The notes below the pieces were generated by a model, which did not search any database, had not been told where the DNA came from, and was given only the letters and a program-made list of their open reading frames with translations. The translations under genes were made by a program, and so were the position numbers. 64,000 bases of DNA from the NCBI GenBank assembly GCA_013287775.1, contig JABDDE010000001.1, positions 7,245 to 71,244 on the forward strand, in the 5' to 3' direction. Source of the stretch: Chlamydiota bacterium. Its GTDB lineage: Bacteria > Chlamydiota > Chlamydiia > Chlamydiales > FEN-1388. This document shows positions 78-61,431 of this stretch, piece after piece; position 1 is the first letter of the stretch, and each line of letters begins with the position of its first letter.

Positions 78-104
78 GTGCAAATTTTCCTGACGGAACT
101 TTGC
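78..104. repeat. PE-1 hairpin element, degenerate copy
   Basis: gtgcaaattttcc tgac ggaactttgc; the left arm matches the PE-1 consensus and the right arm is decayed. Confidence 0.5.
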
Positions 105-117
105 TTCCCCACGCTGT

Positions 118-529
118 CATCAGGCTAAGGTCATGATTCTCACAGGCTTTGGTACATTTTTTTAACAGGGAGAGCTTCAGGAGAGAGCTTGTCAGAGGCG
201 TGTGGGGTGCTAAAGGCATTGATAATAAAGGTCTGGGCAGAGAGATTAGAGAGAAAGCTAAGGGATTATTATGGGTTTATAAGAAGCACTAAAAATGCAT
301 CGAACATCCCAAACCGTTGCTGGTCTCTGCAGCTCTCTCTCTAAAAAAAGCAACCCAGGTCATAACCACCAACACCCCAAACACCCCTAACGCCTCTGAC
401 AAGCTCTCTCTGCAGCTATTCTCCTGTGGCTCTCCCTGTAAAAAAAAGCAACCAGGGCTTGTATTAGCTATAACGTTGCTATGCTAACATCCTTAGCCTG
501 AGCCTGATGCGTATGCCGCTACCACAGCG
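118..529. mobile_element. Family-3 foldback (MITE-like) element, copy 1
   Basis: Outer ends catcaggctaagg (118-130) and ccttagcctg..ctgatgcgtatgcc (491-517) are inverted. Inner arms at ~157-211 (tttttttaacagggagagc..gagagcttgtcagaggcgtgtggggtgct) and ~373-447 are complementary. The same arms recur at 37428-37883 (opposite orientation), at 32006-32223 and in the arrays at 39745-41010. It has no ORF. Confidence 0.6.
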
Positions 530-560
530 CGAAACTGTTATAATCCTGTTTCTTGATTAA

Positions 561-599
561 CATGATGTGCCATTCTCCAAAGGAGAATGGCACATCATG
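561..599 (-). terminator. PE-1-variant perfect hairpin abutting the Rieske gene stop; probable terminator
   Basis: catgatgtgccattctcc aaa ggagaatggcacatcatg forms an 18-bp perfect stem and ends 1 nt before the stop at 600-602. The arms resemble the PE-1 copy at 45775-45813. Confidence 0.6.
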
Positions 600-905
600 T
601 TAATCAATGATCAAGAAGGGCTGCTCCCCTTCCATTTCAATAGGGTAGCTTTGCACGCCTTCATTCCACAAATTTTGATTCTGCCCCGTGGTGATATCGA
701 ACTGCCAGCCATGCCACGGGCATGTGACAGTAGTGTCATCAAGGCTGCCTTCCCCAAGAGGGCCGCCTTCATGGGGGCAGATGTTGTCAATAGCATAAAG
801 CGTGCCTTTGTAGGTAAACACTGCCACCTCACGCCCATCTTCTAAAAGAAGCCACGTGCCTTTTCCTTCATCTGGAATTTTATTTTTTGGTATTGGAATT
901 CTCAT
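600..905 (-). CDS. Rieske [2Fe-2S] domain protein (NirD / small Rieske ferredoxin-like)
   Basis: 101 aa with both Rieske boxes, CPHEGGPL and CPWHGWQF; ATG start. Confidence 0.85.
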   Translation of the reverse strand: MRIPIPKNKIPDEGKGTWLLLEDGREVAVFTYKGTLYAIDNICPHEGGPLGEGSLDDTTVTCPWHGWQFDITTGQNQNLWNEGVQSYPIEMEGEQPFLIID

Positions 906-956
906 GTATAATTCTCATGGATTATAATAAATTATTTGTGTTAGGATGCGGTTTCA

Positions 957-993
957 GGGGTCGTTAAGAAATACCTCGTACATTAACGACCCC
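957..993. promoter_or_regulatory. Inverted repeat in a divergent promoter region
   Basis: ggggtcgttaa-N15-ttaacgacccc lies between divergent genes. The core gttaagaaatacctcgtacatt recurs at 22220-22241 and ttaacgaccc at 22372-22381. Confidence 0.4.
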
Positions 994-1012
994 TTGTGGA
1001 GTATTTTTGTGT

Positions 1013-1498
1013 ATGGACCCTGAGTATAAAAATAATGATACTGCTGGATCGACTCCAGTGACACCCGTGCTACAGAACATTGTACGACAACTTGAAGATC
1101 TTGTACACATTCTCGTCACATGCGAGAAAAAAGAGCTTGCAGAAGGAGTGTCGTTTGAAATGGTGAACAAGCAGCTAGCACAAATACGCCAAGATCTCGA
1201 TCGCTTACATGAAATGTATCTTGAAACGCTCAGGCTTTTATCGCTGAAAGAAAGCGATATTCAGGAGCAACTAAAAACCCTACCCGAGCACAAAGAAGAA
1301 AGACGGTTATTTGAAACCCTGGAGCGGCTTAAAAAAACGGCAGAAGAAGGGCGTGAGAGAGCTTTTCGTGCTATGCAGGGCAATACTGCAGCTACAAAAC
1401 AAGCAAAAGAATTTTTTCTTGATGAAAAGCGAAAAAAAAGGTACAGAAAGGGAAAATTTAAATCGGTTGGTGGTAAAGAAGGATGGATACCGACGTAA
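1013..1498 (+). CDS. Hypothetical coiled-coil protein with a basic C-terminus
   Basis: First ATG of the 1007 (TTG) ORF. It has heptad-like E/L/K-rich sequence and a tail KRKKRYRKGKFK. I recognise no family. Confidence 0.5.
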   Translation: MDPEYKNNDTAGSTPVTPVLQNIVRQLEDLVHILVTCEKKELAEGVSFEMVNKQLAQIRQDLDRLHEMYLETLRLLSLKESDIQEQLKTLPEHKEERRLFETLERLKKTAEEGRERAFRAMQGNTAATKQAKEFFLDEKRKKRYRKGKFKSVGGKEGWIPT

Positions 1499-1556
1499 TT
1501 CAGGTTGCAAAAAAGTGAATTATGGTGTAAAATAATAATTTATCAAGGTGTGTATC

Positions 1557-2967: not shown

Positions 2968-5250
2968 ATGCACACTTTTGAAAGAAATTTAGGCTACTTT
3001 CAGAAGCTGAATCCGCGTGCAGCGGCGCTTCTTTCGTGTGCAAACACAGAACATCTGCAATTTTGCCACACACAAAAAGGTGAGCTGAATCTCGTCGATA
3101 CTCGAATACATCGCACATACCACGACCCAAAAGGGGCTTTGGATGAGGCTATAAAGACTGCCCAAGCTTTTAAGCTTCCCCACCACTATCTGTGCATATA
3201 TGGCGTGGGGCTGGGGTTTCTCTATCAAGCGCTCTCACAGTGGCTGCATGAAGATGAGAGACGTCTTCTTATTATCTTGGAAGATGATTTAGCCGTTATT
3301 TCGCGATTTTTGGAAACCAAAGCAGCGAGTGAGCTACTACTAGACAAGCAGGTATTTCTATACTATTTTGAACATGGCGAGCATTCTGAGTATATTGCGC
3401 AGAGTATTGCGTGGATCACATTTTCAGAGCCTTTAGTTTTCTATGCATCTCCTGTCTATCGTGAAAGGCAGGCATTTGAGGAGATAGAAAAAGTACTGCT
3501 GAATGAGCAAGCAATCGTATATATGATTCTGGGGGAATATGAGATGCTTGGCTGCCCCTTTTTTTGTAATTTTTGGCAAAACCTGCGCCATTTACCGCAT
3601 TCCTATAATGCTGCAGACCTTTTTAGAGCCTTTAAAGGCATTCCTGCGTATGTTATGGGAGCGGGGCCATCACTCACAAAGCAGCTCCCTCTTCTTCGCA
3701 CTCTCTCAGATCGCGCCCTTCTTATTGCTGGTGGTTCTGCTATGAATATTGCCTGTGAGGCAGGTTTGCAGCCTCATTTTGGTGGCGGGGTTGATCCTAA
3801 CCCAACACAGTATTTAAGACTGCGGCAGAGTTTAGCAGTGGAGATGCCGTTTTTTTATAAGCTCAGAGTGTGCTCACGCGTTCCAGATATGGTTATGGGA
3901 ACAAAATTCTACCTTAAAGGTGATGATGCGTATGGGCCTGGGACATGGTTTGATAAAACGCTCCGTATTCGGGGCAAAGAATTTGAAGGCGGCTACAGCA
4001 TAGCCAACACAAGTATTGCCCTCGCCCATGCTCTTGGATGCAATCCTATTATCTTGGTTGGCTTTGATCTTGCCCTGACTGAAGATCGTCACTATGCTAA
4101 AGGGGTAGAGCATGATGAAGAGGAGCCTACCATAGTTGCGTGGAAAGATTATCAAGGCAAGCCCACAAAGACACTGTGGAAGTGGGTGATGGAAGCTGAA
4201 TGGATTTCAGACTTTTGTGAAAAGCACCCCTCAGTGCAGTGTATCAATGCCACAGAAGGTGGGCTCTGGATTCCCAATGTCACCCATATGCCACTCCAGG
4301 ATGCTGCCAAAAAGTGGTGCAAAAAGGAATATGACATGCAAGGGCTTGTGCATATGGCTATACAAAACGCATCCCCACTCAAATGTACACATAAGGCAAT
4401 TCAGCGTCATATGGGGCGCATTGTAGATAGCCTAAAAAAAGCGCAGGAGCTACTAGAACACGTTCTACAAGATAGCAGCAAAGTAAAACTACACGATCCT
4501 TTTGATAATCCTGATATTGCGGCTCTCTTTTATCAGCTTCAAGGAGAGCCTGCGTTTTTGGCAGTGCTTCAAGAGTTTTACAAAAAAGAGATGAAAAGGA
4601 TACAAGTGAGATGTGAGTGGTTGCAGCATCCTGGAGTTACAGATTTTGAGAGGAACAAAGCCATTTACAACATGCGCTGCGAGTGTTTTGAGTGTTTATT
4701 GCAAGTGACAAAAATGAATATCTCCATTATTGCAGAAATTCTTATGTCATGTACGAGTTTTCCTGCGGAAAACTCGCACATGACAAAAAATAGCAGCTCA
4801 GGCGATGTGGTAGCGAAACGTGGGGTTGTGTGTCAATATTTCGATGATGGGAAGCTTGCGAGCCAAACAGAATATGCGGAGGGGCGCCGTGAGGGAGAAG
4901 CGTTTTTTTATTCACGAGAGGGAATATGCGTGCGTAAGGCGACATATACACATGGGGTGTTAGATGGCAAGCAGTACTATTACTATCCAGACGGCGTTCT
5001 CAGGGCTGTTGTGGACTATAAAAATGGAGAGCTCGATGGCGAGTACCGTCATTACTATCCTAATGGGAAGATAATGCGCCAAATTTCGTGTCAGGCTGGC
5101 AAGCGTCATGGGCTTGATACGCTATGGGAGCAAGATGGACAAAAGCAAGGTAAAGAGCGGTTTATATTCCGTTATGAGCATGGTGTCTTAACAGAGGAGC
5201 TGCTTGCTGACCGCATTGCAGATGAGTATGATGTTCTTAATATTCTATGA
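2968..5250 (+). CDS. DUF115 (Maf/MptE-like) domain protein fused to C-terminal MORN/YwqK-type repeats
   Basis: VMGAGPSL..LIAGGSAMN..GGGVDPNP is the DUF115 core. The C-terminus has repeated YxxGxLxGxxxxYYPNG units (DGKQYYYYPDGVL, DGEYRHYYPNGKI). A PE-1 hairpin is translated in frame at 4745-4785. Confidence 0.7.
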   Translation: MHTFERNLGYFQKLNPRAAALLSCANTEHLQFCHTQKGELNLVDTRIHRTYHDPKGALDEAIKTAQAFKLPHHYLCIYGVGLGFLYQALSQWLHEDERRLLIILEDDLAVISRFLETKAASELLLDKQVFLYYFEHGEHSEYIAQSIAWITFSEPLVFYASPVYRERQAFEEIEKVLLNEQAIVYMILGEYEMLGCPFFCNFWQNLRHLPHSYNAADLFRAFKGIPAYVMGAGPSLTKQLPLLRTLSDRALLIAGGSAMNIACEAGLQPHFGGGVDPNPTQYLRLRQSLAVEMPFFYKLRVCSRVPDMVMGTKFYLKGDDAYGPGTWFDKTLRIRGKEFEGGYSIANTSIALAHALGCNPIILVGFDLALTEDRHYAKGVEHDEEEPTIVAWKDYQGKPTKTLWKWVMEAEWISDFCEKHPSVQCINATEGGLWIPNVTHMPLQDAAKKWCKKEYDMQGLVHMAIQNASPLKCTHKAIQRHMGRIVDSLKKAQELLEHVLQDSSKVKLHDPFDNPDIAALFYQLQGEPAFLAVLQEFYKKEMKRIQVRCEWLQHPGVTDFERNKAIYNMRCECFECLLQVTKMNISIIAEILMSCTSFPAENSHMTKNSSSGDVVAKRGVVCQYFDDGKLASQTEYAEGRREGEAFFYSREGICVRKATYTHGVLDGKQYYYYPDGVLRAVVDYKNGELDGEYRHYYPNGKIMRQISCQAGKRHGLDTLWEQDGQKQGKERFIFRYEHGVLTEELLADRIADEYDVLNIL
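4745..4785. repeat. PE-1 hairpin element inside a CDS (in frame)
   Basis: tgtcatgtacgagttttcc tgc ggaaaactcgcacatgaca; it reads MSCTSFPAENSHMT in the frame of ORF 2968-5250. Confidence 0.9.
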
Positions 5251-5646: not shown

Positions 5647-5692
5647 CCAGGGCGTTGCCCTTGGCTGTTGCAATTCCAGCCTTTCAGGCTGG
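5647..5692. repeat. PE-2 hairpin pair between convergent genes
   Basis: ccagggcgttgcccttgg ctgttgcaatt ccagcctttcaggctgg; the same module occurs at 8007-8056 and, inverted, at 45978-46063. Confidence 0.7.
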
Positions 5693-6898: not shown

Positions 6899-6948
6899 AT
6901 AGCACACTCCTTCCGCTAGTATAATCTAGATCAAGTTGGGAATCTTAG

Positions 6949-6989
6949 GAACATAGATACCTTATGCTATGCATAAGGTATCTATGTTC
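6949..6989. promoter_or_regulatory. 41-bp perfect palindrome in the MFS/rpsD divergent intergenic region
   Basis: gaacatagataccttatgc tat gcataaggtatctatgttc; a consensus TATAAT sits at 6920-6925 on the + strand. Confidence 0.4.
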
Positions 6990-7181
6990 GTAAGAAACCA
7001 GGTAAGGGTTGGTTTATAAAAACCTCTCAGCCCAAAAGGGCACCCCTGGCGCAAAACATGTCCTCAGTATAACAACTTTTGTGGAAAGCAGCAAGCAGCG
7101 TTTAGGAAAATGGCACACAGACGTAATTCCCTCTTGCAAAAAACTCTCGATATGTGAGATATTGGTAGTAATTTTAATTAA

Positions 7182-7223
7182 ACGTCGTGTGCTATTTTCC
7201 GCCAGGAAAATAGCATATGACGT
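7182..7223. repeat. PE-1 hairpin element
   Basis: acgtcgtgtgctattttcc gcca ggaaaatagcatatgacgt, 20 nt upstream of the rpsD ATG. Confidence 0.85.
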
Positions 7224-7243
7224 CTGAAATTTAAGGAGACACA

Positions 7244-16658: not shown

Positions 16659-16746
16659 ATTTTTGTAGTTATCAAATTTTATTTTTTTTGTAAAACATTT
16701 TTTTCTAATTTTTTTTTTCCGCTCGTACCTTCAGGTCGCCCAGCAG

Positions 16747-16763
16747 CGAAAATAGCACATGAC
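16747..16763. repeat. PE-1 half-copy (right arm only)
   Basis: cgaaaatagcacatgac matches the right arm of the copy at 7205-7223; it lies immediately downstream of the dprA stop (16765-16767). Confidence 0.5.
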
Positions 16764-16764
16764 A

Positions 16765-17853
16765 TCAACATACAATTGTATACCGTTTCCCTGGATGTTC
16801 CAAAACGGTTTTTTTTAGCATAAGCTTTGTAAGTGTTACCTGCAGAGCAGAAACAGGAAGCGGAATCTGCTCTGAGAGCTCTTCTAGAGACATTTCTGAT
16901 TCTGAAAGAAGCGCGTAAATTTTTTTCTCCTCCTGCGTGGAAAATAGGTCTGGTACGCTCTTTTTTTGTGGAGCTGTCGGTTGTTTTGTATGTCCGAGCG
17001 CATGTAAAATTTCTTCAGGATGGTCGATGAGCTTTGCCAAACCCTGCTTTATAAGGAGATGATTGCCTTGTGTATAGGGGCTGCCTGCCTTTCCAGGAAG
17101 CGCAAAGAGGGGTTTTTTATGAGACAGGCCAAGCTGCATGGTGAGCATAGCCCCGCTTTTCTCGGGGGCCTCTGTAAGCAAAAGAGCGTCACTTAATGCT
17201 GAAAGAATACGATTTCTTTGTGGAAATGAAAAACGCGAGGGAGGCTCTTTCATAGCGCATTCACTGATAACAGCGCCGCGCTCTACAATTTTTGCTGCAA
17301 GGCCTGTGTTTTCTCGGGGATAGAGGCAGCTAATGCCAGAGCCGATGACAGCAACGGTTGTGCCCGTCAGGAGCGCCCCCGTGTGGGCAGCAGTGTCAAC
17401 GCCACGAGCAAGGCCACTTACAACAATACATTTTGAAGCTAAGGCCTTTGCAAAGTGCTGTGTGAGGTCTTTGCCTTGTAGAGTTGCTGTGCGGGTGCCA
17501 ACAATGGTAATCCATGGGATCGTAAAATCTGGTAGGCTTCCCTGTACATACAAAAGAGGCGGTGCATCATGGATAGCACGGAGCCGCTGAGGATATTGGG
17601 TGCTCGTGTATGGTATAAGCTGTATGCCCGCTCGCTCTGCCTCCATAAGATCTTGCTGCCAGGATTTTTGCTCAGTATATGTGCGAAGATACTCGAGAGA
17701 TGCTTGTTTAAGGGGTACTGGAGTTGGATGATTGTTTGATAGAGCTTGAACTACGCAAGACGCCTGCCCAAAGTGAGCAAGTAAGGCGCTGGTTGTTGCT
17801 GGGCCTAAAAAAGGTGTATGGGTAAGAATAAGGGTGGCTATAATTTCGTTCAT
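16765..17853 (-). CDS. dprA: DNA-processing protein DprA (Smf)
   Basis: GLARGVDTAAH, FPQRNRILSALS and a C-terminal winged-helix region. The alternative ATG at 17871 adds 6 aa. The dprA-topA adjacency is conserved. Confidence 0.9.
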   Translation of the reverse strand: MNEIIATLILTHTPFLGPATTSALLAHFGQASCVVQALSNNHPTPVPLKQASLEYLRTYTEQKSWQQDLMEAERAGIQLIPYTSTQYPQRLRAIHDAPPLLYVQGSLPDFTIPWITIVGTRTATLQGKDLTQHFAKALASKCIVVSGLARGVDTAAHTGALLTGTTVAVIGSGISCLYPRENTGLAAKIVERGAVISECAMKEPPSRFSFPQRNRILSALSDALLLTEAPEKSGAMLTMQLGLSHKKPLFALPGKAGSPYTQGNHLLIKQGLAKLIDHPEEILHALGHTKQPTAPQKKSVPDLFSTQEEKKIYALLSESEMSLEELSEQIPLPVSALQVTLTKLMLKKTVLEHPGKRYTIVC

Positions 17854-18235
17854 GTGCAATTTTGTACACATGTGTAGCTGACGCTACACAGTGTACAAAT
17901 TGGATTAAAATGACACGGTAATTGTCCCATCAATCCAAATGGTTTCTCCGGCTCTGCTCAGCGATGATGTATGCGCTTTCGCAGTCCGGTGTTGTTGCGC
18001 CTGCTCTGAAGCTTGGGCGCCTGGAAATAAAGACGACATATGCTCATAAAGGAGCGTCAGCGGCGTCTTAGTATGCGCAGAACTTTGCGAACATACAAAT
18101 TGAGTTGCTATCATAAATACCTACCTACTTTGGTAGTGGATAAAAAACAGCACGAATATGAGTACTAGAGAGCGTCGCCTCTGTTCACCTCCTTTTGTCT
18201 CGACACGCTACACATTCATGGGCAAATTATTTAAC

Positions 18236-19164: not shown

Positions 19165-19204
19165 GTCATGTGCAAATTTTCCTGACGGAAAATTTGCACA
19201 TGAC
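19165..19204. repeat. PE-1 hairpin element (consensus-like, perfect)
   Basis: gtcatgtgcaaattttcc tgac ggaaaatttgcacatgac followed by gaaaat. Confidence 0.95.
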
Positions 19205-19209
19205 GAAAA

Positions 19210-19397
19210 TGACTCACATGTGAGGTACTTGCAAAATTCCGATTTGGGCCAAAATTTGCGCTTTTGTCGCTGTGGAAAAACCTTTTGCAAATCGCCTACT
19301 CGAGGGAGTATGTCGATTTGCAAAAGGTTTTCCCCATCACCAAAATCATCAAATTTTGTCTCCAACGGAATTTTGCAAGCACCTCATGTGTGAGTCA
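19210..19397. mobile_element. 188-bp foldback MITE (family 4), copy 1
   Basis: 32-bp terminal inverted repeats tgactcacatgtgaggtacttgcaaaattccg / cggaattttgcaagcacctcatgtgtgagtca (3 mismatches). The two halves are ~70% complementary throughout. The second copy is at 33731-33935. Confidence 0.75.
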
Positions 19398-22525: not shown

Positions 22526-24496
22526 ATGAAACATCTCTATAATATAATACTTTTTTCCATATCGTTACTTGTTTGTCAAACAGTTGCGGCTAAGCCTGCA
22601 GAGCTTTCACAGCAAAATGTAACGGATAAAATGCATGAAATTATGAGGGCGCATGTGCTCTACAAGCATTTTTCACCGCTTCTTGCAAAGCGCTCTATTA
22701 GTAACTTTATCGAGGCGCTCGATCCTACAAAGACCTATTTTCTCTTTAGTGAGATAGAAAGGTGGTTAGATCTCGATGAAGATGGTCTTAAACAAGTTGT
22801 GGAGGATTTTGAGCAATCTGAGTTTCCTCTTTTTACAGCTATTTTTGAGCAAATGGATCAAGCGCTTAAAAGACGTGATCTATTCGAAGAGAGGTTGAAA
22901 GGCGTGGCTCTGCCAAAAAACGTCACTCCCAAGGAATTTAAAGACATGAGTTGGTGTGCCAATGAAGCAGAGCTGTATAATCGGTTAAAACGCCTTCGAG
23001 CGCTACAGCTGGAGGCTGCGGGAAACATTGGCGATGATGCCACTTTGAGAGCCAAACAGCGACTTGCAAAAAAACGTAAAATCATGGAAGAAGAGTTTCA
23101 AAATACCGATCCTGTCCTTCGACAAGAAACTATCTGTACACATATTATGAAGGCACTTGCTTCTTCTCTAGACCCTCATACAATGTACTTTACTCCAGAT
23201 GAAGCGTCGCAGTTTTTGTTTTTAATACAGCAGCGCCTTGTGGGCATTGGTGTGCAGCTACGAGATGATGTAGATGGCTTTACCATTGTCAAGATGGTAG
23301 AAGGCGGGCCTGCAGAAGTGTCTAAGGAAATAAAGGTGAAGGACAAGATTATTGGGATCAACGGTGAGCCTGTGATCGGCCTTGATGATGCTGAGGTAAT
23401 CGATATGATCCGAGGCCCCTCTGGAACGCAAGTTGCTCTACGCGTTATTCGTGAAATAGGCCATGATGGGGCAAAAATGCAGCAGGTAAAGGAGATTCAT
23501 CTTACAAGAGGCGATGTTATTGTGAAAGAAGCTCGTCTCGAAACGGCTATCGAGCCATTTGGCGAGGGTGTTATTGCGCACCTGCACCTGCATTCTTTTT
23601 ACCAAGATGAAGATAGCTCTTCAACAACTGATATCATAAAGGCCCTGGGCGAGATACGCAAAAACTACAAAGTAGTTGGGGTTATGCTAGACCTTAGAAA
23701 TAACTCTGGAGGCATTTTAACGGAAGCGGTTAATATTGTTGGTCTTTTTATAAAAAAAGGCGTTGTTGTTTCTATTAAGGATGAACAAGGCAGCGTACAT
23801 CATATGAGAGATTTAGATTCAGAGCAAATATGGGATGGGCCTGTAGCTGTTTTGGTAAATCGTTTGAGCGCGTCGGCGGCTGAAATTGTGGCGCAGGCCC
23901 TGCAAGATTATGGGAGAGCGCTTATTATAGGGGACGATCACACCTATGGGAAGGGCACTTTTCAGACATTTACGCTGACAGGGGCGACTATTAATCCTGA
24001 AGGCGAGTATAAAGTGACGCGTGGCTGTTACTATACGGTGTCTGGCAAGACGCCGCAGCTTGTTGGTACCAGAGCAGATATTATGATTCCAAGTGGTCTT
24101 ATGGGGCTAGAAATTGGCGAAGAGTATGCAAAATATCCCATAGAAAATGACACCATAGCTCCGAGCTTTAATGATACCTTTAGCGACATTTCGTTCTTTC
24201 AGCGAGACAGGGTTCGAAGGCTCTATGGTAACAATGTACAAAAGCCTGACCCGCACATTCGGAGCTTTTTTGCCCTCCTTCGCAAAAATAGCAAAATACG
24301 ACAGGAAAATAACAAGGCATATCAACGCTTTTTGTTGGAGATGAAAAAGAGTGTGGATGAAATGGAGAGCGATACTTCCCTTGAGCATGCTCCCGATTTT
24401 CAGCTTCAAGAGGCGATGAATACGATGAAAGACTATATTATTGATGTTGTGTGCAATTTTCCTGCGGAAAATGTGCACACAACATCAATAAAATGA
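22526..24496 (+). CDS. tsp: Tail-specific (C-terminal processing) protease, S41 family, with PDZ domain
   Basis: Signal peptide MKHLYNIILFSISLLVCQTVAA, a PDZ domain (IVKMVEGGPAE..KDKIIGING), LDLRNNSGG and SASAAEI..GKGT. AAGGGAG RBS. The last 17 aa derive from a PE-1 copy. Confidence 0.9.
   Translation: MKHLYNIILFSISLLVCQTVAAKPAELSQQNVTDKMHEIMRAHVLYKHFSPLLAKRSISNFIEALDPTKTYFLFSEIERWLDLDEDGLKQVVEDFEQSEFPLFTAIFEQMDQALKRRDLFEERLKGVALPKNVTPKEFKDMSWCANEAELYNRLKRLRALQLEAAGNIGDDATLRAKQRLAKKRKIMEEEFQNTDPVLRQETICTHIMKALASSLDPHTMYFTPDEASQFLFLIQQRLVGIGVQLRDDVDGFTIVKMVEGGPAEVSKEIKVKDKIIGINGEPVIGLDDAEVIDMIRGPSGTQVALRVIREIGHDGAKMQQVKEIHLTRGDVIVKEARLETAIEPFGEGVIAHLHLHSFYQDEDSSSTTDIIKALGEIRKNYKVVGVMLDLRNNSGGILTEAVNIVGLFIKKGVVVSIKDEQGSVHHMRDLDSEQIWDGPVAVLVNRLSASAAEIVAQALQDYGRALIIGDDHTYGKGTFQTFTLTGATINPEGEYKVTRGCYYTVSGKTPQLVGTRADIMIPSGLMGLEIGEEYAKYPIENDTIAPSFNDTFSDISFFQRDRVRRLYGNNVQKPDPHIRSFFALLRKNSKIRQENNKAYQRFLLEMKKSVDEMESDTSLEHAPDFQLQEAMNTMKDYIIDVVCNFPAENVHTTSIK
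24443..24486. repeat. PE-1 hairpin element forming the 3' end of tsp
   Basis: gatgttgtgtgcaattttcc tgc ggaaaatgtgcacacaacatc; translated as DVVCNFPAENVHTTS. Confidence 0.85.
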
Positions 24497-26197: not shown

Positions 26198-26310
26198 ATA
26201 TTTCCTCAGTATTGATTTATAATTTAAACATATCATATTATAATTTTCCTGAAAAGATTTATATTATATTTCAAAAACTGATGGTTTTTATGTTGTCGTG
26301 CATATATTTA

Positions 26311-26351
26311 ACGTCATGCACCATTTTCCGTAGGAAAATGGTGCATGACGT
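26311..26351. repeat. PE-1 hairpin element (perfect) abutting the stop of the HEAT-repeat gene
   Basis: acgtcatgcaccattttcc gta ggaaaatggtgcatgacgt; the stop codon is at 26352-26354. Confidence 0.95.
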
Positions 26352-29354: not shown

Positions 29355-29390
29355 GTGACGTTAAGTGCGAATTTTCCTGTGAGAAATATT
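29355..29390. repeat. PE-1 hairpin element, degenerate, directly upstream of the ATG at 29391
   Basis: gtgacgttaagtgcgaattttcc tgtg agaaatatt. Confidence 0.5.
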
Positions 29391-37000: not shown

Positions 37001-37283
37001 TATTAAAGCGATCGCGGATGGTGCCGCGCTCTGCTGCTTGTACGACCACTTTTGTGCGTGCCAGAAATGCCTCTTCTGATTTTTTGTCGTGCTGGATAAT
37101 AGCCAAATGCCACAGGCGCAGCGCAATAAGCAAAAGCAAAAAAAGCACTACATTCAGAAGACGGTTAGCCTTTACTGGAATGGATGCAAGGGATGGAGAG
37201 TGGTCTCGGCGTATATTTCTCACACCATTATGGTATTTTGTTTGTGAAAAAAACGCAACATACGTGTATAATGGAGACGTCAT
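34035..37283 (-). CDS. Penicillin-binding protein 2 (transpeptidase), long chlamydial type
   Basis: N-terminal TM with SxxK (GSIFKLITGY), SxN (SSNPYF) and a KTG-like motif (GKTSTSE). The ~1080 aa length matches chlamydial PBP2. The start codon lies within a PE-1 arm. Confidence 0.85.
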   Translation of the reverse strand: MTSPLYTYVAFFSQTKYHNGVRNIRRDHSPSLASIPVKANRLLNVVLFLLLLIALRLWHLAIIQHDKKSEEAFLARTKVVVQAAERGTIRDRFNIVLATNTTDFRLGIIYASLREIPQVIFDKTSTGERRKVYLRKMYIRALAELIEREVGLDQERVVDLIYSYAAQNNNIPYILKNHLTEQEYYRLKMLEKDWPGLHVERIPKRSYPHGKALCHILGYLAPIQKEQYEKVLSDIHTTASAITVAELGLGLPAPFTTIEEAKKSLTELQERAYTINDHIGTLGVEASFENYLRGFYGKEEYFSDAKGNFVRSLQSQPPLSGKRLVLSISLQLQEYAEKLLAESEKVRKSAAKQEQEKTHERYKEPWIRGGSIVAIDPKNGQVVALASFPRFDPNDFIQANENVKRWIENEEYEAATWNQKIGLVQEEVGPDGSMQEKEELLEWDRFLEWILPPHCPIKTLLSENTSLEHIIALQSAFNEILKRAPTLSPEEVMSLLYEQGDEPYVGQFLQDVATYKAVLDRALQPLQNTKERLLLLDLSRLIIQAEEINTRGAAATELSRYSIREFRALSSTAVFISELLKKEAKKIFRLHTMKAWRSTHEKAFLQAKRVEEKRAGKYPRPYLEYIDKHEKEAFDAFWKKWKEALLTFACTKNSAAFGTEFVELEPYIERFAELHDKIKPLFPYAPELLHICKGYMDITHPLYGRYRGLGTDAKSLASSFMKSVSGHYLRSYAFRESSIQGSIFKLITGYTALKQLYLEKQGSVSPKDMQLFEISDHYYKMHGKTFVGNFSNGQPIPQLYKGGRIPKSLNLHLGTMNLLRAIETSSNPYFSLLAGDFLHDPTTLIQCAQDFGYGEKSGIQLPYEIKGNLPQDIATNKTGLYATAIGQHTLVNTPLQSSCMIAALANGGDLLRPQIALLAAGRTISEQPSSVNEVEEFSRHVRRSVFLPVEIQNTLFEGMRRCTSHAQEEYKRKRFIGAGCHFLPRVYKEFTAMQGLIGKTSTSEVVERIGLDVGDTPHMYRHIWYGGIAFPQNNGVFTFQDPELVVVVYLRYGGYGKDAAPIAAAIVNKWREIMSSHSRART

Positions 37284-37318
37284 ATGTCATTTTCCTAACG
37301 GAAAACGACATATGACGA
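37277..37318. repeat. PE-1 hairpin element containing the PBP2 start codon
   Basis: acgtcatatgtcattttcc taac ggaaaacgacatatgacg followed by aaaatag. Confidence 0.85.
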
Positions 37319-37335
37319 AAATAGCTTGTCCTTAT

Positions 37336-37883: not shown

Positions 37884-37911
37884 AGTTCCAATTGGGCATG
37901 TTCTAATTTTC

Positions 37912-37950
37912 GTCATGTGTAATTTTCCGTTAGGAAAATTCACACATGAC
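37912..37950. repeat. PE-1 hairpin element (reverse orientation) abutting the stop of the BNR gene
   Basis: (attttc)gtcatgtgtaattttcc gtta ggaaaattcacacatgac. Confidence 0.9.
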
Positions 37951-44454: not shown

Positions 44455-45785
44455 CACTAATAATACGCGGAGGAACACCTCTGAGTGGCGAGGTGCAAGT
44501 AGCGGGAGCAAAAAATGCAACGACAAAGCTGTTGGTTGCATCACTTCTTTCTGACAAGCGATGCACCTTGTATAATGTCCCGAACATTGGGGATGTTGAA
44601 ATAACCGTTGCTTTATGCAAAGAAATGGGAGCAGAGGTTACTTGGGATAAAAAAGAAAAAACGCTCTCCATAATCACTCCAGAGCTCAAAACTTCCTATA
44701 TTTCCCAGCGGTTTTCTGGGGCTAATCGTATTCCTATTCTTATGATAGGAGCGCTTCTAGGGCGCACGGAAGAAGACATTATTGTCCCAACAGCTGGAGG
44801 CTGTAAGCTGGGGCCGCGTGCAATTGATTTTCATATTGATGCCCTACAAAAACTGGGCGCAACTATTGAACTTCGCGAGATGAAGAAAGAGGCGGCCTAT
44901 TTTGCCCATGCGCACAATGGCCTCAAAGGCGCTGTCATCAATTTGCCCTATCCTTCTGTCGGCGCCACTGAAAACAGCATTCTCGCTGCAGTTTCTGCCA
45001 AGGGGACAACTATTATTAAAAATGCCGCAGTAGAGCCTGAAATTGTCGACCTCATCCTCTTTTTGCAGAAACTCGGTGCCAATATCTCCATCGAGACAGA
45101 TCGGACGATTGTTATTCACGGGACGAAAAAATTTTATGAAGTAGAACATACAGTCATGCCAGATAGGAATGAGGCCGCCTCATTTGCGATGGCGGCCATC
45201 AGCACCAAAGGGCGTGTGTTTGTACGAGGCGCACAGCATCGAGACATGATGTGCTTTTTGAATAAAATTCGTGAACTCGGTGGCGGTTTTCATATTAAGC
45301 ACGACGGTATTGAATTCTTTTATGATGGCGCTCTTCAGGGGGGATGCCACTTAGAGACCGATGTGCATCCAGGTTTTTTAACCGACTGGCAACCACCCTT
45401 TGTCGTGCTTCTTACCCAGGCGTCAGGGGTGTCTGTCGTACATGAGACGGTTTACGAAAATCGCTTCGGCTATACTACCGCCCTCAAGGAAATGGGCGCA
45501 CAAATTGCGCTTTATAAACAATGCCTTGGTGGAAAAAATTGCAGATTTTCGACAAATGCACACTATCATAGCATTGCGATTAGCGGCCCCACACCACTTT
45601 CTGGAAAGACTATTTCAATTCCTGATTTGCGCGCGGGTTTTGCCTATGTTATGGCAGCGCTTATCTCACCCGAAGAGAGCACTCTTTCAGGTCTACATTT
45701 TATTGATCGTGGTTATGAAGATTTAACCACAAAACTAGAACAGCTCGGTGCAACCATTTGCCGAGCAAAAGAGAGTCATGTGTAA
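44451..45785 (+). CDS. murA: UDP-N-acetylglucosamine 1-carboxyvinyltransferase
   Basis: GGTPLSGEVQVAGAKNATTKLLVASLL. The active-site loop PTAGGCKLGPRAIDFH retains Cys. The last codons and stop lie in a PE-1 arm. Confidence 0.95.
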   Translation: MTLIIRGGTPLSGEVQVAGAKNATTKLLVASLLSDKRCTLYNVPNIGDVEITVALCKEMGAEVTWDKKEKTLSIITPELKTSYISQRFSGANRIPILMIGALLGRTEEDIIVPTAGGCKLGPRAIDFHIDALQKLGATIELREMKKEAAYFAHAHNGLKGAVINLPYPSVGATENSILAAVSAKGTTIIKNAAVEPEIVDLILFLQKLGANISIETDRTIVIHGTKKFYEVEHTVMPDRNEAASFAMAAISTKGRVFVRGAQHRDMMCFLNKIRELGGGFHIKHDGIEFFYDGALQGGCHLETDVHPGFLTDWQPPFVVLLTQASGVSVVHETVYENRFGYTTALKEMGAQIALYKQCLGGKNCRFSTNAHYHSIAISGPTPLSGKTISIPDLRAGFAYVMAALISPEESTLSGLHFIDRGYEDLTTKLEQLGATICRAKESHV

Positions 45786-45813
45786 TTCTCCTGGCGGCAG
45801 AATTACACATGAC
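45775..45813. repeat. PE-1 hairpin element containing the murA stop codon
   Basis: gtcatgtgtaattctcc tggc ggcagaattacacatgac followed by gaaaaaa. Confidence 0.85.
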
Positions 45814-45854
45814 GAAAAAATCAGCTATATGCAATTTTGCGATAGGAAAATTAT

Positions 45855-45893
45855 GCCATGTGCGACTTTTCCTGACGGAAAAGTGCACATGGC
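45855..45893. repeat. PE-1 hairpin element
   Basis: gccatgtgcgacttttcc tgac ggaaaagtgcacatggc followed by gaaaatag. Confidence 0.9.
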
Positions 45894-45977
45894 GAAAATA
45901 GCGCACATAGTGCCAATACAATTAACGCGAGGCGCGACTTACGAGCTGTTCGAATTGTAAGGATTCATAGCCTTTTC

Positions 45978-50584: not shown

Positions 50585-50633
50585 GCATGGTTGCACCAAA
50601 CGGTGTTGTAGATATCCCATTCGTCACCAACTA

Positions 50634-50678
50634 TCACTCCCTCACTGTCCCCCTTCATGGGGGACAGTGAGGGAGTGA
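50634..50678. terminator. Perfect 20-bp hairpin overlapping the last 12 codons of gene 50642-51529
   Basis: tcactccctcactgtccccc ttcat gggggacagtgagggagtga. Confidence 0.6.
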
Positions 50679-58007: not shown

Positions 58008-59155
58008 AATAACGTTTTTGATAATTTTCGTAGGCGTACTATGGCCTCGCCTATAATTGTAGCAGCTTTTTCAATATCGTGCTCGGTTGTAAACTTTGAA
58101 AGACTGAAGGAGAGTGTACATGAGGCGATGATATGATCGATACCTGAAGCTTCTACGACGCGTTCAATATGCTGCTCGCAGCCGCCGCCCATGGTGGCAA
58201 AGACCCCTTTTTTGCTCAGGGCATAGAGGAGTGCTTCGCTTCGTATGCCATAAAAGGCAATGGCTGAAGTGGTCGGCAGCCGCTCGCTTTCTTTGAATAA
58301 CACGCTCGCTTCGGGACATTGCTGGATAATACGCTCTTCAAAGAGGTCACGCAGGCGTGCTACTTCACTACAATAGAGGGTGCTACTTTGCTCTGCTTCT
58401 ATACACGCTTGTCCCAGCGCAATTTCGAGAGGTACGTTTATAGGGCCACCGCGAAAGCGCGTCTCTTGCCCATCACCTGCTATGAGAGGGATAAGCGGTG
58501 TCCCTTTTCGTGCAAAAAGGCCGCCAGTGCCCTTAGGGGCATGCAGCTGTTCACCATTGAAGGTAAGATAATCGGCACCAAGCTCGGCAAAGTCGACAAG
58601 AAGTTTGCCAAGTGCATGGGTGACATCAATGTGCAGAAGAATCCCCCGCTCTTTACAAAGTGCAGCGATATCATATACGGGCTGTATAACACCTGTGAGG
58701 GCAGATGCTAGGGGAAGAGAGATGAGGCAGGTGCGAGGAGTAATTGCCTCGATGATGCTGTCTAGTGGCACATACCCCTCTTTTGACACTTTGGCCATTT
58801 GAAGGGCGCAGCCCTCTTCTTCTAATTTTGAAAGTGCATAAATCGTTGCCGCGTCCCCTATAGTGGATGTGATAAAATGGGTTTTGCCTGTTTGCCGCGC
58901 CACTTGTTCATACACAGAGTGAATGACTTGTGTTATTGATTCACTATATGATGATGTAAATACAAACAAATCATCCTCTTTGGCACCGGCGAGGTGGTAT
59001 ATAGCGTGTAGAGCCTTTTCGATAGGTCGCAATAGTTCTTGCCCCATCGCATGTGGGCAAGAGGGGCTAGCATAATGCTCCTCAAAGTAGGGCATCATGG
59101 CTAAGATAACCGTTTGAGAGGGTTTTGTTGCTGTGTTGTTGTCTAGGTATGTCAT
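58004..59155 (-). CDS. Cysteine desulfurase-like class-V aminotransferase-fold protein (NifS/IscS-like); the PLP lysine is apparently substituted
   Basis: MTYLDNNTATKP.., HIDVTHALGK and a Cys loop MGGGCEQH. At the SGHKxxGPKG position it reads NGEQLHAPKG. The start was trimmed to the ATG at 59155. Confidence 0.75.
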   Translation of the reverse strand: MTYLDNNTATKPSQTVILAMMPYFEEHYASPSCPHAMGQELLRPIEKALHAIYHLAGAKEDDLFVFTSSYSESITQVIHSVYEQVARQTGKTHFITSTIGDAATIYALSKLEEEGCALQMAKVSKEGYVPLDSIIEAITPRTCLISLPLASALTGVIQPVYDIAALCKERGILLHIDVTHALGKLLVDFAELGADYLTFNGEQLHAPKGTGGLFARKGTPLIPLIAGDGQETRFRGGPINVPLEIALGQACIEAEQSSTLYCSEVARLRDLFEERIIQQCPEASVLFKESERLPTTSAIAFYGIRSEALLYALSKKGVFATMGGGCEQHIERVVEASGIDHIIASCTLSFSLSKFTTEHDIEKAATIIGEAIVRLRKLSKTLL

Positions 59156-59159
59156 ATAT

Positions 59160-59195
59160 TGTACTCGTGTTCTCGCAAGCGAGAACACGAGTACA
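59160..59195. promoter_or_regulatory. 36-bp perfect palindrome 5 nt upstream of the nifS-like ATG
   Basis: tgtactcgtgttctcgc aa gcgagaacacgagtaca; it is preceded on the minus strand by tatact. Confidence 0.45.
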
Positions 59196-59301
59196 GTATA
59201 TGATATAAAACTGTCCTGAATCAATCGTTTTTTGTAGAGAATACTTTCCTTTAAAGGTATATTAGGCTACGATGGTACCACATGAATGTGGAGAGTTGGC
59301 T

Positions 59302-59889
59302 ATGACTATCATAAAAATACTTCTGTTTGTAATGAGCACCTTTTACGCTCTAAATGCTGCCGTACAAGAGGCTCCAAAGGCACGTGGGCAATTTTTTGGG
59401 GTGTTGCGCCAGAGTGATGAAGAGGCGATAGATGATGATGCCTATAGTGAGGGAGATGCGCTTATTGACGAAATTATCGATAAAACAGTAAAGAGTATTA
59501 AAAAGAAGTATGCTGTTGTTCGATTGCAAAAAGAGAGCGTGCTGTCTCAAGGTCTTATAGGTACCATCTCGATGCATTTAGAGATGTGCAAAGAGATATG
59601 CAAAGAAGATGCGCGAAAAATACTCGTTGCAACGGCAAAGGAGTTTATGCAGAACGTAAGCCACAGCAGCAAAATAAAGCAATTTTTAAAACATCCTCCC
59701 TTTGCTTTAGAAGATCTCCAAATAGTACTCTATTGTTATCAGGAGAATATGGACAACGACGACTCCATTGCGCTCGCAGATATGACCAAAGGGACTTTGA
59801 ATTATATCACCGTAGATTGCCATAATAATTTTGCATGTAAGGAATATCGGGAAACCTATGAGGAAGCGGTTCAAGCTCTTAGTTTATAA
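59302..59889 (+). CDS. Hypothetical secreted protein
   Basis: GGAGAG RBS with signal peptide MTIIKILLFVMSTFYALNA. I recognise no family. Confidence 0.5.
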   Translation: MTIIKILLFVMSTFYALNAAVQEAPKARGQFFGVLRQSDEEAIDDDAYSEGDALIDEIIDKTVKSIKKKYAVVRLQKESVLSQGLIGTISMHLEMCKEICKEDARKILVATAKEFMQNVSHSSKIKQFLKHPPFALEDLQIVLYCYQENMDNDDSIALADMTKGTLNYITVDCHNNFACKEYRETYEEAVQALSL

Positions 59890-59972
59890 ATTATTTATTT
59901 TAATGTGTGTCTGGATCATAAAAGGTGAAGGAGTAGAAAAAGTAAGCCCCTTTACGAGGTCCTTGCAACAGT

Positions 59973-61025
59973 ATGGGTTTTGTACCTTTTGTTTACGCTG
60001 CCATACGGGCGGCTGCAAAGCACTCAAAGAGGGTGTCGCTCAGGAGTATGCAAAACGAGTCGAGCAAGAACAAAATTTTCGAAGAAAGATTTGGCGAGAA
60101 GATCACGATGAAAACGGAGAGAGATATCCATATTGGGATGGAGGGCGCCCATACGAACACCAAGGATATTAGCGAAGAGAAAAAGCGAAGTCGAATAGCG
60201 GTTAAAAAGAAGCTCAAGCGGCTTCGAAAGGGGATACAAGAAAAACAGCAAAGTCTTGAAGAGGCTCAAAATTGGCAAGGCACTCAGCATCTTGCAGACC
60301 TTCTCAAAGCGCATTTCTACATGCTCCAAGAAGGTATGAGCTCAATTACGATTCCTGATTGGGAAAAAGAGGGAGCTTTAGTGGAAATTCCGCTTGAGCC
60401 TTTAGTGCCTCTTGACACACAGCTCAAAGCACTCTACACTACAGCAAAAAAACAAAAAAAAGCCATTCTGCCACTACAAAAGATTGTGCAGCATCTCCAT
60501 GATGAAGAGGGTAAGTGGGAAAAGGTACTCACCCAAATAGAGTCTACAGATACGCTTGAGGCACTCGAGTCTTTACAAAGGGAGCATCAGCTCGTACAAC
60601 AAAAACCAAACGCTTCAAAGGTGAGTCAAAAGCAGCCACTTGCCTACCATGTGTTTTATTCAGCCTCACATCACACTATCTATGTGGGAAAGAGTGCTGA
60701 GGGCAACGATTTTGTTACATTTAAGATGGGACATGGCGATGATCTGTGGCTGCATATCCATGGCACAGCAGGCTCTCATGTACTCATAAAAAAGCAAAAG
60801 AACATGCAAATCGATCCAGAAACTATTGCAGATGCGGCTCACTTAGCTATATATTTCAGTAAAGAGCGCTCGCAGTTGCAAAAAAAGCATGAGGTGATTC
60901 TGTGTGAAAGACGCGAGGTCTCGCGAATGAAAAAAATGCCTCCAGGGAAGGTGACAGTGCGTACTTCTAAGACGCTCTGCATTGTACTCGATCCGCAGCG
61001 TATTGAGGCTATTAAAGATCGTTAA
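59973..61025 (+). CDS. NFACT-R/DUF814 domain protein (RqcH/FbpA C-terminal-like)
   Basis: IYVGKSAEGNDFVTFKMGHGDDLWLHIHGTAGSHVLIK is the DUF814 core. The N-terminal part is coiled coil. The start is uncertain (59973, 60048 or 60108). Confidence 0.7.
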   Translation: MGFVPFVYAAIRAAAKHSKRVSLRSMQNESSKNKIFEERFGEKITMKTERDIHIGMEGAHTNTKDISEEKKRSRIAVKKKLKRLRKGIQEKQQSLEEAQNWQGTQHLADLLKAHFYMLQEGMSSITIPDWEKEGALVEIPLEPLVPLDTQLKALYTTAKKQKKAILPLQKIVQHLHDEEGKWEKVLTQIESTDTLEALESLQREHQLVQQKPNASKVSQKQPLAYHVFYSASHHTIYVGKSAEGNDFVTFKMGHGDDLWLHIHGTAGSHVLIKKQKNMQIDPETIADAAHLAIYFSKERSQLQKKHEVILCERREVSRMKKMPPGKVTVRTSKTLCIVLDPQRIEAIKDR

Positions 61026-61142
61026 TAAAGCTTTTGCCTACTTGCCTTGCCCCACGCAGAATAATAGGGCAGCGCAGAGGGTCCTCTTTCCATTTTTTTA
61101 GCTCTGTTTCTATAGCTCGTTTCATGCCTTCAGTATACAAGA

Positions 61143-61201
61143 TTGGCTAATTTATGGGGGTGATTTTCGCCAATTCTTGGCTAATTTATGGGGGTGATTT
61201 T
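61143..61201. repeat. Direct repeat x2 (25 bp)
   Basis: ttggctaatttatgggggtgatttt occurs at 61143 and 61177. Confidence 0.85.
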
Positions 61202-61214
61202 AGCCAAAAACCAC

Positions 61215-61253
61215 GCCATATGCGACTTTTCCTTACGGAAAAGCGCACATGGC
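61215..61253. repeat. PE-1 hairpin element
   Basis: gccatatgcgacttttcc ttac ggaaaagcgcacatggc followed by ggaaata. Confidence 0.9.
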
Positions 61254-61270
61254 GGAAATATTTTCAGGAA

Positions 61271-61370
61271 AGATTAATTGTTCCTCAGGCCTCAGATGAT
61301 GCTTACGTGAGTATTGACACCAGGGCTATTTGGACGCGGACACGGAAATTCGGTAGTTCTACTAATTCCC
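61271..61370. repeat. Degenerate single BIME-like module
   Basis: attaattgttcctcaggcctcagatgatgcttacgtgagtattgacaccaggg...acggaaattcgg aligns with module 12681-12790. Confidence 0.55.
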
Positions 61371-61390
61371 TAGATTCGGAAAAATATTTT

Positions 61391-61431
61391 TGTCATGTGC
61401 AATTTTTCGATAGAAAAATTCGCACATGACA
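61391..61431. repeat. PE-1 hairpin element 6 nt from the response-regulator stop
   Basis: tgtcatgtgcaatttttc gata gaaaaattcgcacatgaca. Confidence 0.9.

Follow-up and report, generated by a model that had tools for sequence, protein, structure and literature searches.

How can a single hairpin of about 40 nt come to lie at so many places in so little DNA, and why should it be found mainly where genes end? The question is raised by PE-1, a hairpin element dispersed through a 64-kb stretch of the Chlamydiota bacterium assembly GCA_013287775.1 (contig JABDDE010000001.1, positions 7,245 to 71,244), hereafter the window. On balance, PE-1 is probably a lineage-specific family of dispersed hairpins, akin to the repetitive extragenic palindromic (REP) elements and the Rickettsia palindromic elements (RPEs), which would have been inserted at gene boundaries and would serve there as a hairpin at the 3' end of messenger RNA. 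The window contains the hallmarks of a chlamydial genome, namely a topoisomerase I/SWI fusion (TopA/SWI), a CT441-type Tsp, PBP2, a TLC ATP/ADP transporter and MurA, in keeping with the chlamydia-like host proposed when the sequence was first annotated. The best matches to MurA are in metagenome-assembled genomes (MAGs) of Chlamydiae, at no more than 79% identity, with Parachlamydia and Protochlamydia at 72-73%. Because even the best identity is this low, the host is, on the evidence of MurA, an uncultured lineage of Chlamydiae of which no near kin has been sequenced. The source contig measures 89,440 nt and is present in NCBI, in IMG and in a Logan assembly of run SRR8434706; a literature search for this run accession returned no paper.

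The repeated hairpin family is confirmed as real. The apical core TTTTCC-N3-5-GGAAAA matches nine times, against 0.08 expected from dinucleotide shuffles of the window; the core combined with the 3' arm gives 13 strand matches in seven copies, against none expected in shuffled sequence, and the perfect outer palindrome TCATGTGC...GCACATGA gives two, again against none. The initial annotation had proposed a genome-wide comparison with shuffled sequence; within the window, such a comparison favours enrichment, as shuffles yield about none. A covariance model, R1, was built from 11 aligned clear copies with an 18-pair stem, and the window was searched with filters off. It finds 11 canonical copies at 58-71 bits (E 1e-13 to 2e-17) and a symmetric variant at 553-607 with 47 bits, besides which nothing in the window exceeds 20 bits. 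Local alignment adds four truncated or decayed copies, making a total of 12 intact copies and 4 remnants, or about one intact copy per 5 kb (Table 1). Each of the 15 coordinates originally listed holds a full, variant or decayed copy; the remnant at 17837-17863 was absent from that list.

Each intact copy is a single hairpin, with a stem of 17-19 bp and a loop of 3-4 nt. Intact copies span 37-55 nt, the unit being a stem-loop of 38-40 nt with an A-rich 3' tail of 10-30 nt. Folding energies range from -21 to -33 kcal/mol, with z-scores of -6.5 to -10.9; when the variant at 553-607 (-43 kcal/mol) is included, the z-scores extend to -12.7. The stem opens with G-C, the element ends being GTCATG...CATGAC, and two blocks of the palindrome are conserved, GTCATGTGC and TTTTCC/GGAAAA. 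The initial annotation had remarked that the two arms change together, and this is borne out by a count over 17 pairs in 13 sequences, 11 from the window and two from a metagenome contig (L092). In this alignment, which was fitted to R1 itself, standard pairs fill 93% of cells, and 10 of the 17 pairs have changes on both arms, several of these double changes distinguishing subfamilies rather than single copies. The observed pairing and covariation were reached by none of 500 shuffles, and sliding the partner columns by 1-3 positions reduced pairing to 28-52%.

PE-1 is also directional, one strand outscoring the other under R1 by 10-40 bits in all 11 canonical copies. On this sense strand the loop is T-N-A-C or T-N-C (variants include TAAC, TTAC, TAC and TGC), roughly half of the copies have an additional, bulged G in the 5' arm (position 10), and the stem is followed by the tail GAAAAT(AGCG). 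The 'gaaaat' motif that was first described as a frequent follower of the hairpin is found in 7-8 of the 11 copies. The tail is extended to GAAAATAGCGCACAT in one subfamily, where it resembles the 3' arm repeated in degenerate form. Subfamilies are recognisable by their inner stems: GCGAC, with the bulged G and the tail AGCGCACAT, comprises e45855, e61215 and the copies on L092; AGAC...GTT(T)AA comprises e7184 and e26313; and TGT-AAT comprises e37912 and e45775. In its longest form the unit measures about 69 nt, and L092 has a head-to-tail duplicate of it, in which both tandem copies have the tail of e45855.

The direction of PE-1 corresponds to that of the neighbouring genes. All five copies between or within tandem genes (4746, 26313, 37912, 45775 and 45855) point with those genes, and all three in convergent spacers (24446, 61215 and 61392) point with the gene just upstream, meaning that eight of eight copies in informative positions are co-oriented with the upstream gene; two of the remnants and copy c of L092 are likewise co-oriented. 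The copies at 7184, 19165 and 37279 lie in divergent spacers, which are uninformative on orientation. Seven copies are on the plus strand and four on the minus strand, three of the latter directly downstream of minus-strand genes. As GC skew is positive throughout the whole window, these four minus copies indicate that the orientation of PE-1 tracks transcription, not replication. Position is constrained too: 7 of the 12 intact copies either overlap a stop codon or start no more than 10 nt from one, the others being 20-190 nt away, and copy c of L092, which is outside the window and excluded from this count, lies 6 nt after a TAA. The spacers holding PE-1 measure 66 to about 540 nt, and in such spacers this proximity to stop codons cannot be chance. 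Hence the earlier statement that nearly every copy lies near a start or stop codon is true for most of them, although the initial annotation missed both the direction of PE-1 and its co-orientation with local transcription.

Stop-adjacent hairpins of this kind extend well beyond PE-1. Stem-loops of at least 12 bp with at most one mismatch number 22 in the 64-kb window, whereas 43 kb of the nearest relatives contain 0-1. Similarly, structure of -20 kcal/mol or stronger (from -20 to +60 around the stop) is found at 16 of 45 gene ends in the window, compared with 0 of 18 in the chlamydial loci L089 and L091 and 3 of 12 in the chlamydial locus L094. Perfect palindromes that are long and occur only once make up many of the window's hairpins; these begin no more than 10 nt from a stop and, again, have no U tract. 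PE-1 is the repeated subset of this general, lineage-specific class of stop-adjacent hairpins, a genome-wide excess that had also been missed. We read the excess at gene ends as the best evidence of usefulness to the cell, with PE-1 persisting where it fits this role. Unique near-perfect palindromes with arms of 18-35 nt lie at approximately 21604-21660, 31480-31552, 32371-32426 and 48774-48813, and further examples at approximately 50632-50680, 59148-59207 and 6943-6995.

Several copies are translated, which is again something that the initial annotation did not record. The last three codons and the stop of MurA (SHV*) are inside e45775, and the tail of this MurA is shorter than those of 12 homologues, which have 8-40 extra variable residues past the conserved end. 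The match of Tsp (683 residues) to the CT441-family profile stops at residue 666, and the protein runs 17 residues beyond; its last 16 residues, VVCNFPAENVHTTSI, together with the stop, are the e24446 hairpin in frame 1, the loop of this copy being TGC instead of TGAC and so leaving that frame open. The third case is a protein joining an MptE-like domain to MORN repeats (MptE-MORN; open reading frame (ORF) 2968-5250), in which e4746 is translated in sense frame 2 as SCTSFPAENSHMTKN. By alignment, this segment falls in the variable linker between the two parts. An exhaustive profile search found many homologues of 737-778 aa with the MptE-like domain and the MORN repeats in one protein, and an independent gene call likewise predicts one gene, of 760 aa. 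Ten of the 11 copies have an open sense frame 2, which may explain the survival of in-frame copies. We infer that the translated copies arose by insertion, with the comparison for MptE-MORN and Tsp being made against homologues at most 42% identical and, for the former, across a variable linker.

The family appears to be confined to this lineage. R1 searches with filters off, covering about 59 kb of relatives in total, found no PE-1 in 21 kb (L089) and 13 kb (L090) of an organism whose MurA is 78% identical, in 8 kb (L091) of the MAG GCA_023269335.1 (MurA 79%), in 3.4 kb (L095) of a third relative (MurA 79%), or in the 12-kb chlamydial contig L094, where the one weak match is an operator of the CIRCE (controlling inverted repeat of chaperone expression) type. 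The 3' flank of murA is without PE-1 in four murA loci from three organisms (L089, L090, L091 and L095). In the whole metagenome collection, a strict 26-position pattern found one 2.4-kb contig, L092, with three GCGAC-subfamily copies, a and b in head-to-tail tandem and c past a stop codon. The best homologues of the L092 protein are only 44% identical, and the L094 locus, from another organism, is without PE-1. PE-1 was not found in the viral contig collection. Rfam returned only three tRNAs in the window at the gathering threshold, and only chance miRNA matches at E up to 1 in two sampled regions (45700-46000 and 61150-61480). Two short-read contigs from the same sample, identical to the window, break at PE-1: L088 ends inside e45855, and L001 ends 26 nt past e19165. 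Such breaks would fit further copies elsewhere in the genome. On these comparisons PE-1 is lineage-specific. A full-text literature search found no REP-like repeat family described for Chlamydiota, and the part of the survey by Di Nocera et al. (2013, PMC3733652) that covers the Planctomycetes-Verrucomicrobia-Chlamydiae (PVC) superphylum reports GTAG repeats there, with no chlamydial host named in that part. A REP-like family in Chlamydiota is therefore apparently undescribed so far.

Two further observations were made during these searches. The CIRCE-like operator of L094, at 6750-6788, has the form TTAGCACTT-N9-AAGTGCTAA and lies upstream of groES-groEL; the contig itself is JADMIO011189589.1, a chlamydial sequence within the very large, probably eukaryotic assembly GCA_016307145.1. 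Separately, Lentisphaeria RGIG3841 and Victivallaceae MAGs (L007, L011, L013, L014, L018, L020 and others) contain an unrelated multi-copy repeat, ...GCTTCATATTTTCCGCAGGAAAATGCTTCATACGGCGGAGCCGTGCTTCAT..., which consists of several small hairpins spaced by GCTTCAT, is often found at contig ends, and has only the apical TTTTCC-GCA-GGAAAA in common with PE-1.

Table 1. Intact copies, variant and remnants of PE-1 in the 64-kb window, in order of position
Copy	Coordinates	Strand	Form	Score	Context
	77..104	+	decayed; inner stem and loop only	local alignment score 44; R1 partial, E 0.22	
	553..607	. (undefined)	variant, near-perfectly symmetric, 26-bp stem	R1 46.7 / 44.1 bits on the two strands; -42.9 kcal/mol	covers last codons and stop of Rieske gene 600-905(-); has CATGATGTGC and ATTCTCC/GGAGAAT in common with e45775
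e4746	4746..4794	+	full, with tail	59.6 bits	inside ORF 2968-5250
e7184	7184..7231	-	full	60.7 bits	divergent spacer, 22 nt upstream of rpsD start; directed towards MFS transporter gene 5684-6907(-)
	16744..16765	-	truncated; 5' arm only	local alignment	directly past dprA stop, co-oriented with dprA
	17837..17863	-	truncated; 3' arm and tail	local alignment score 38	at dprA 5' end
e19165	19165..19214	+	full, perfect 18-bp stem	71.4 bits; -28.3 kcal/mol	divergent spacer; directed towards Schlafen/AlbA_2 gene 19512-20882(+)
e24446	24446..24496	+	full	58.0 bits	encodes C-terminal end of Tsp (22445-24496); tsp stop 10 nt after hairpin
e26313	26303..26349	-	full	62.9 bits; -33.5 kcal/mol	2 nt past TAG stop of HEAT-repeat gene 26352-28088(-)
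	29360..29390	+	decayed	local alignment score 36	at start of ORF 29337-31493
e37279	37279..37326	+	full	66.2 bits	divergent spacer; overlaps first ATG of PBP2 ORF (-); 20 nt upstream of tRNA-Gly (+) at 37336-37406
e37912	37902..37950	-	full	68.8 bits	one base overlaps TAG stop of BNR-repeat gene 37950-39671(-)
e45775	45775..45823	+	full	61.8 bits	contains stop of murA (44451-45785); head-to-tail tandem with e45855, 80 nt start to start
e45855	45855..45910	+	full, bulged G, long tail GAAAATAGCGCACAT	70.4 bits	second of the tandem with e45775
e61215	61215..61263	+	full	65.3 bits	convergent spacer, 189 nt downstream of NFACT-like gene 59973-61025(+)
e61392	61382..61430	-	full	67.4 bits	same convergent spacer as e61215; 6 nt past TAG of response-regulator gene 61437-62126(-)

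The initial annotation described the behaviour of PE-1 as REP- or RPE-like. This stands as to kind, as the element is structured and occurs in many scattered copies, some of them decayed, that form subfamilies, but not as to membership of a named family. Like the REPs and bacterial interspersed mosaic elements (BIMEs) of gamma-proteobacteria, which have GTAG tags and REP-associated tyrosine transposases (RAYTs), PE-1 belongs to the short imperfect palindromes (20-40 nt in REPs) that are present in many copies, lie mostly downstream of genes, form subfamilies and are specific to a species or lineage, and it would, as they are, be transcribed as stable 3' hairpins; the 12 intact copies of 37-55 nt in 64 kb are many, and mostly extragenic. 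Unlike REPs, it has no GTAG at either end, its 5' flanks being ..TAT, ..AAT or ..GAC; its stem, at 17-19 bp, is about twice as long; it has a conserved A-rich 3' tail; and its host is a member of the Chlamydiota. Nor are its copies arranged in inverted pairs, as they are mostly single or head-to-tail (45775/45855; L092 a/b), and the members of each of the two tail-to-tail pairs are separated by 139 and 596 nt respectively, with other repeats in between.

A second group of REPs, described by Di Nocera et al. (2013, PMC3733652), is tagged with CGTC and includes Rickettsia RPE-4/6 and Neisseria dRS3. The complement of the PE-1 3' end is CGTCATG in 7 of the 11 copies, and CGTC or TGTC more generally, with CGCC in two copies. 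According to that survey, CGTC REPs have no dedicated transposase found for them, occur in obligate intracellular bacteria and lie within genes in some cases, all points of likeness. However, it also describes an 8-9-bp stem opening with A/T pairs, a 4-5-nt loop and a CCA tail, all absent in PE-1, and an arrangement mostly in head-to-head dimers, unlike that of PE-1. Moreover, the GTC of the motif in PE-1 pairs with the GAC of the other arm rather than forming a free tag. Membership of the CGTC REPs was rejected because of this pairing and of a stem twice the length of theirs.

RPEs share with PE-1 an obligate intracellular host and the in-frame insertion of a palindrome that is translated as an extra peptide, for which e4746 (MptE-MORN linker) and e24446 (Tsp C-terminus) would be the counterparts. 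Yet RPEs measure about 100-150 bp, against 40-70 nt for PE-1, most copies of which are extragenic and stop-adjacent, and PE-1 is not known to be related by sequence to RPE-1 to RPE-10. Miniature inverted-repeat transposable elements (MITEs) such as Correia, ERIC and NEMIS are likewise small, non-autonomous repeats with inverted-repeat ends, which are co-transcribed with their neighbours and can change mRNA stability and gene ends, but PE-1 has no target-site duplication and no internal region beyond its 3-4-nt loop. The ends of IS200/IS605 elements and palindrome-associated transposable elements (PATEs) differ in that PE-1 has no conserved 5' target and no replication-strand bias (7 plus / 4 minus). 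Rho-independent terminators resemble PE-1 in being stable stem-loops directly past a stop codon and co-oriented with the gene, and differ in their U tract, PE-1 having instead an AT-rich stem repeated at unlinked loci. PE-1 is of one broad kind with REPs, RPEs and other untagged stem-loop repeats, behaving most like REPs and RPEs, but falls outside the definitions of GTAG REPs, CGTC REPs, RPEs and MITEs. Further REP-like families without conserved terminal motifs are noted for several phyla by Di Nocera et al. (PMC3733652), and it is with these that PE-1 belongs.

Two other candidates were discarded. Integron attC sites were rejected as the ends are GTCATG...CATGAC, not RYYYAAC ... GTTRRRY core sites, and as the genes alongside, found on both strands, have housekeeping roles (murA, tsp, rpsD, a response regulator), with no integrase in the window. 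A CRISPR mini-array was rejected because the 30-nt 'spacers' of L092 are near-identical, reflecting a duplicated 69-nt unit, and most copies are dispersed and single.

REP hairpins stabilise the 3' ends of mRNAs, as at E. coli malE-malF. This stabilising role, also summarised in PMC3733652, would provide the model for PE-1. Firstly, copies would be inserted into gene boundaries by an enzyme that is encoded elsewhere in the genome or has already been lost. The hairpin itself may be the feature that this mobilising enzyme recognises, which would explain why pairing is kept in each subfamily. Signs of insertion can be seen in a MurA without the variable tail that ends in the element's SHV*, in the Tsp extension and in the linker segment of MptE-MORN, while the four decayed or half copies in the window are a sign of turnover. 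Secondly, PE-1 would be transcribed as the end of the upstream mRNA, giving a highly stable RNA hairpin that is not followed by a U tract. This hairpin most likely blocks 3'-to-5' exonucleases or marks the transcript boundary, in the manner of E. coli REP elements; cleavage in the single-stranded GAAAAU tail may come beforehand. Thirdly, it would occupy the same niche as the unique stop-adjacent hairpins of this genome. Fourthly, antisense insertions and most intragenic insertions would be removed by selection, with occasional in-frame ones surviving where frame 2 is open.

Several results weigh against insertion followed by service as an mRNA 3' hairpin. On the side of mobility, a mobilising enzyme for PE-1 was not found within the window; no direct repeat at a consistent offset, of the kind left by target-site duplication, surrounds 14 copies examined; no 4-5-mer that could be a target tetra- or pentanucleotide is common to the 5' flanks; and mobility is read from empty sites in relatives of no more than 79% MurA identity, rather than from polymorphism between strains. 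On the side of function, three copies are in divergent spacers, where no upstream mRNA ends. Furthermore, when both strands of the 14 copies of the window and L092 are folded as RNA, the antisense strand is never the less stable and is the more stable in 12, because the mismatches of the sense strand are A.C and become G.U in its complement. Such an excess would not be expected from selection acting on the sense RNA, although the A.C mismatches are partly common by descent and perhaps represent four or five independent events. Changes on both arms can also be produced by quasipalindrome correction, in which template switching yields compensatory change, and the double-arm changes of PE-1 could stem from this rather than from selection. 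Finally, all PE-1 statistics come from one 64-kb window and one 2.4-kb metagenome contig.

The strongest competitor, though clearly the less probable, is that PE-1 is a selfish miniature element without host function, moved as single-stranded DNA by an HUH/Y1-type (IS200/IS605, RAYT-like) or other transposase elsewhere in the genome. Its positions and orientations would then reflect tolerated insertions, or single-stranded DNA exposed by transcription. Subfamilies, decayed copies, footprints in coding ends and head-to-tail duplicates would all be expected, and the mismatches, A.C on the sense strand and G.T on the other, suggest that it is the folding of bottom-strand DNA that is preserved, as for strand-specific single-stranded transposition; if genome-wide, the A.C bias would point to preserved bottom-strand folding, for instance in a single-stranded DNA intermediate, and favour a selfish element. 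CGTC-type REPs likewise lack an identifiable transposase (PMC3733652). Against this, no transposase of any kind was detected among the 50 ORFs of the window by family-profile scans (Pfam and NCBIfam), as originally stated, and no insertion sequence is present within the window. Nor is there a conserved 5' cleavage or target tetranucleotide, a target-site duplication, or the replication-strand bias that IS200/IS605-type insertion would give. Lastly, PE-1 has the same tight position relative to stop codons as the unique hairpins of the same genome, which argues for a common function over mere tolerance.

Such a common function is taken further in a more speculative proposal, to which we give slightly less credence again. 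In this lineage, stop-adjacent hairpins would be a general mRNA 3'-end module replacing U-tract terminators, with PE-1 as its copy-and-paste form. The 5' arm would lie in the footprint of the terminating ribosome, coupling folding to translation termination, and the spread of the element would depend neither on a RAYT nor on a classical transposase, but possibly on transcription. If this were true, hairpin folding would tie mRNA stability, Rho access or downstream expression to translation termination.

The remaining explanations account for much less. It is very improbable that PE-1 copies are terminators, intrinsic or factor-dependent, conserved in place and alike by descent or convergence. 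Eight of the 11 copies are at gene 3' ends and co-oriented, and their stems are very stable. Terminators consisting of a hairpin alone ('I-shaped') have been suggested for other phyla. Yet the 11 sense-strand tails are all A-rich, not U-rich, whereas the same genome has a classical U-tract terminator after topA, and a terminator scan flagged only the antisense side of e19165; as no U tract follows the stem, PE-1 copies are, by sequence, not canonical terminators. Near-identity over 38-55 nt at unlinked loci cannot be convergence either. The case that the initial annotation had set against its own reading, that of ordinary conserved terminators, is ruled out because PE-1 is dispersed in multiple copies, is missing from the murA 3' flanks and some 59 kb of relatives, and overlaps or interrupts coding sequence, one copy lying within an ORF, and others across stop codons or in divergent spacers.

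A binding site in duplex DNA for a dimeric protein, whether a regulon operator, a site for a nucleoid-associated protein or one of the gyrase/IHF type found in BIMEs, is fractionally harder still to credit. The long palindrome with its two conserved blocks would suit such a protein, and in E. coli both gyrase and IHF bind to REP/BIME elements. However, double changes that preserve pairing but alter sequence are unexpected for a duplex recognised by protein, most copies are at 3' ends or in convergent spacers rather than at promoters, and a strand-specific loop, bulge and tail, together with co-orientation, would be meaningless for a symmetric duplex. Least probable of all is an outward promoter or 5'-leader module driving a co-oriented downstream gene: although the loop (C)TGAC(G) and the tail GAAAAT are 16-17 nt apart, like weak -35/-10 boxes, and 8 of the 11 copies have a co-oriented gene downstream, one being 20 nt upstream of tRNA-Gly, each hexamer fits only 3-4 of 6 positions, the loop varies, a promoter scan called none of the three copies within the 20 kb covered, and 24446, 61215 and 61392 face convergent genes, with nothing to drive.

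PE-1 is accompanied in the window by other repeats. The non-coding blocks 12400-14080 and 31700-32000 are dense with other hairpin repeat families, one being CCxGGTCTTCAATGxCGCTTCGCGGCATGAAGACCGGGG and a second CCCAGGTTTCAGATGTCGCTTACGCGAACACTGAAACCTGGG, which also has a member between two PE-1 copies, at 61284-61325. A PD-(D/E)XK (PDDEXK_3) gene at 40137-40613 is flanked by tandem repeats of about 98 nt, in opposite orientations, at 39736-40115 and 40550-41013, with partial copies of the repeat at 170-470, 37493-37560 and 37738-37831. About 12 units of the 12-nt tandem repeat TCGGGCCTTGAC occupy 31559-31704, directly past the long palindrome that ends ORF 29337-31493; the short repeat CATCAGGCTAAGGYCATGRYTCTCACRGRCTTKG occurs at least three times (approximately 125-165, 13748-13790 and 37840-37900); and an exact 50-nt duplicate is found at approximately 7928-7977 and 7994-8043. 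The motif GTGAGTCA / TGACTCA is repeated several times at 19383-19470, upstream of the Schlafen/AlbA_2-HTH gene at 19512-20882.

If PE-1 is a dispersed hairpin family inserted at gene boundaries, repeat expansion of the Rickettsia type would also have occurred in an environmental chlamydial lineage. Its consequences would reach beyond the spacers: PE-1 would alter the ends of proteins (MurA, Tsp), add an in-frame peptide to a two-domain protein, and break short-read assemblies. R1 can flag this lineage in metagenomes, and may explain fragmented MAGs. The combination of strict co-orientation, tightness to stop codons and a hairpin excess that is missing in the nearest relatives provides a handle on the distinction between selfish DNA and a recruited 3'-end module.

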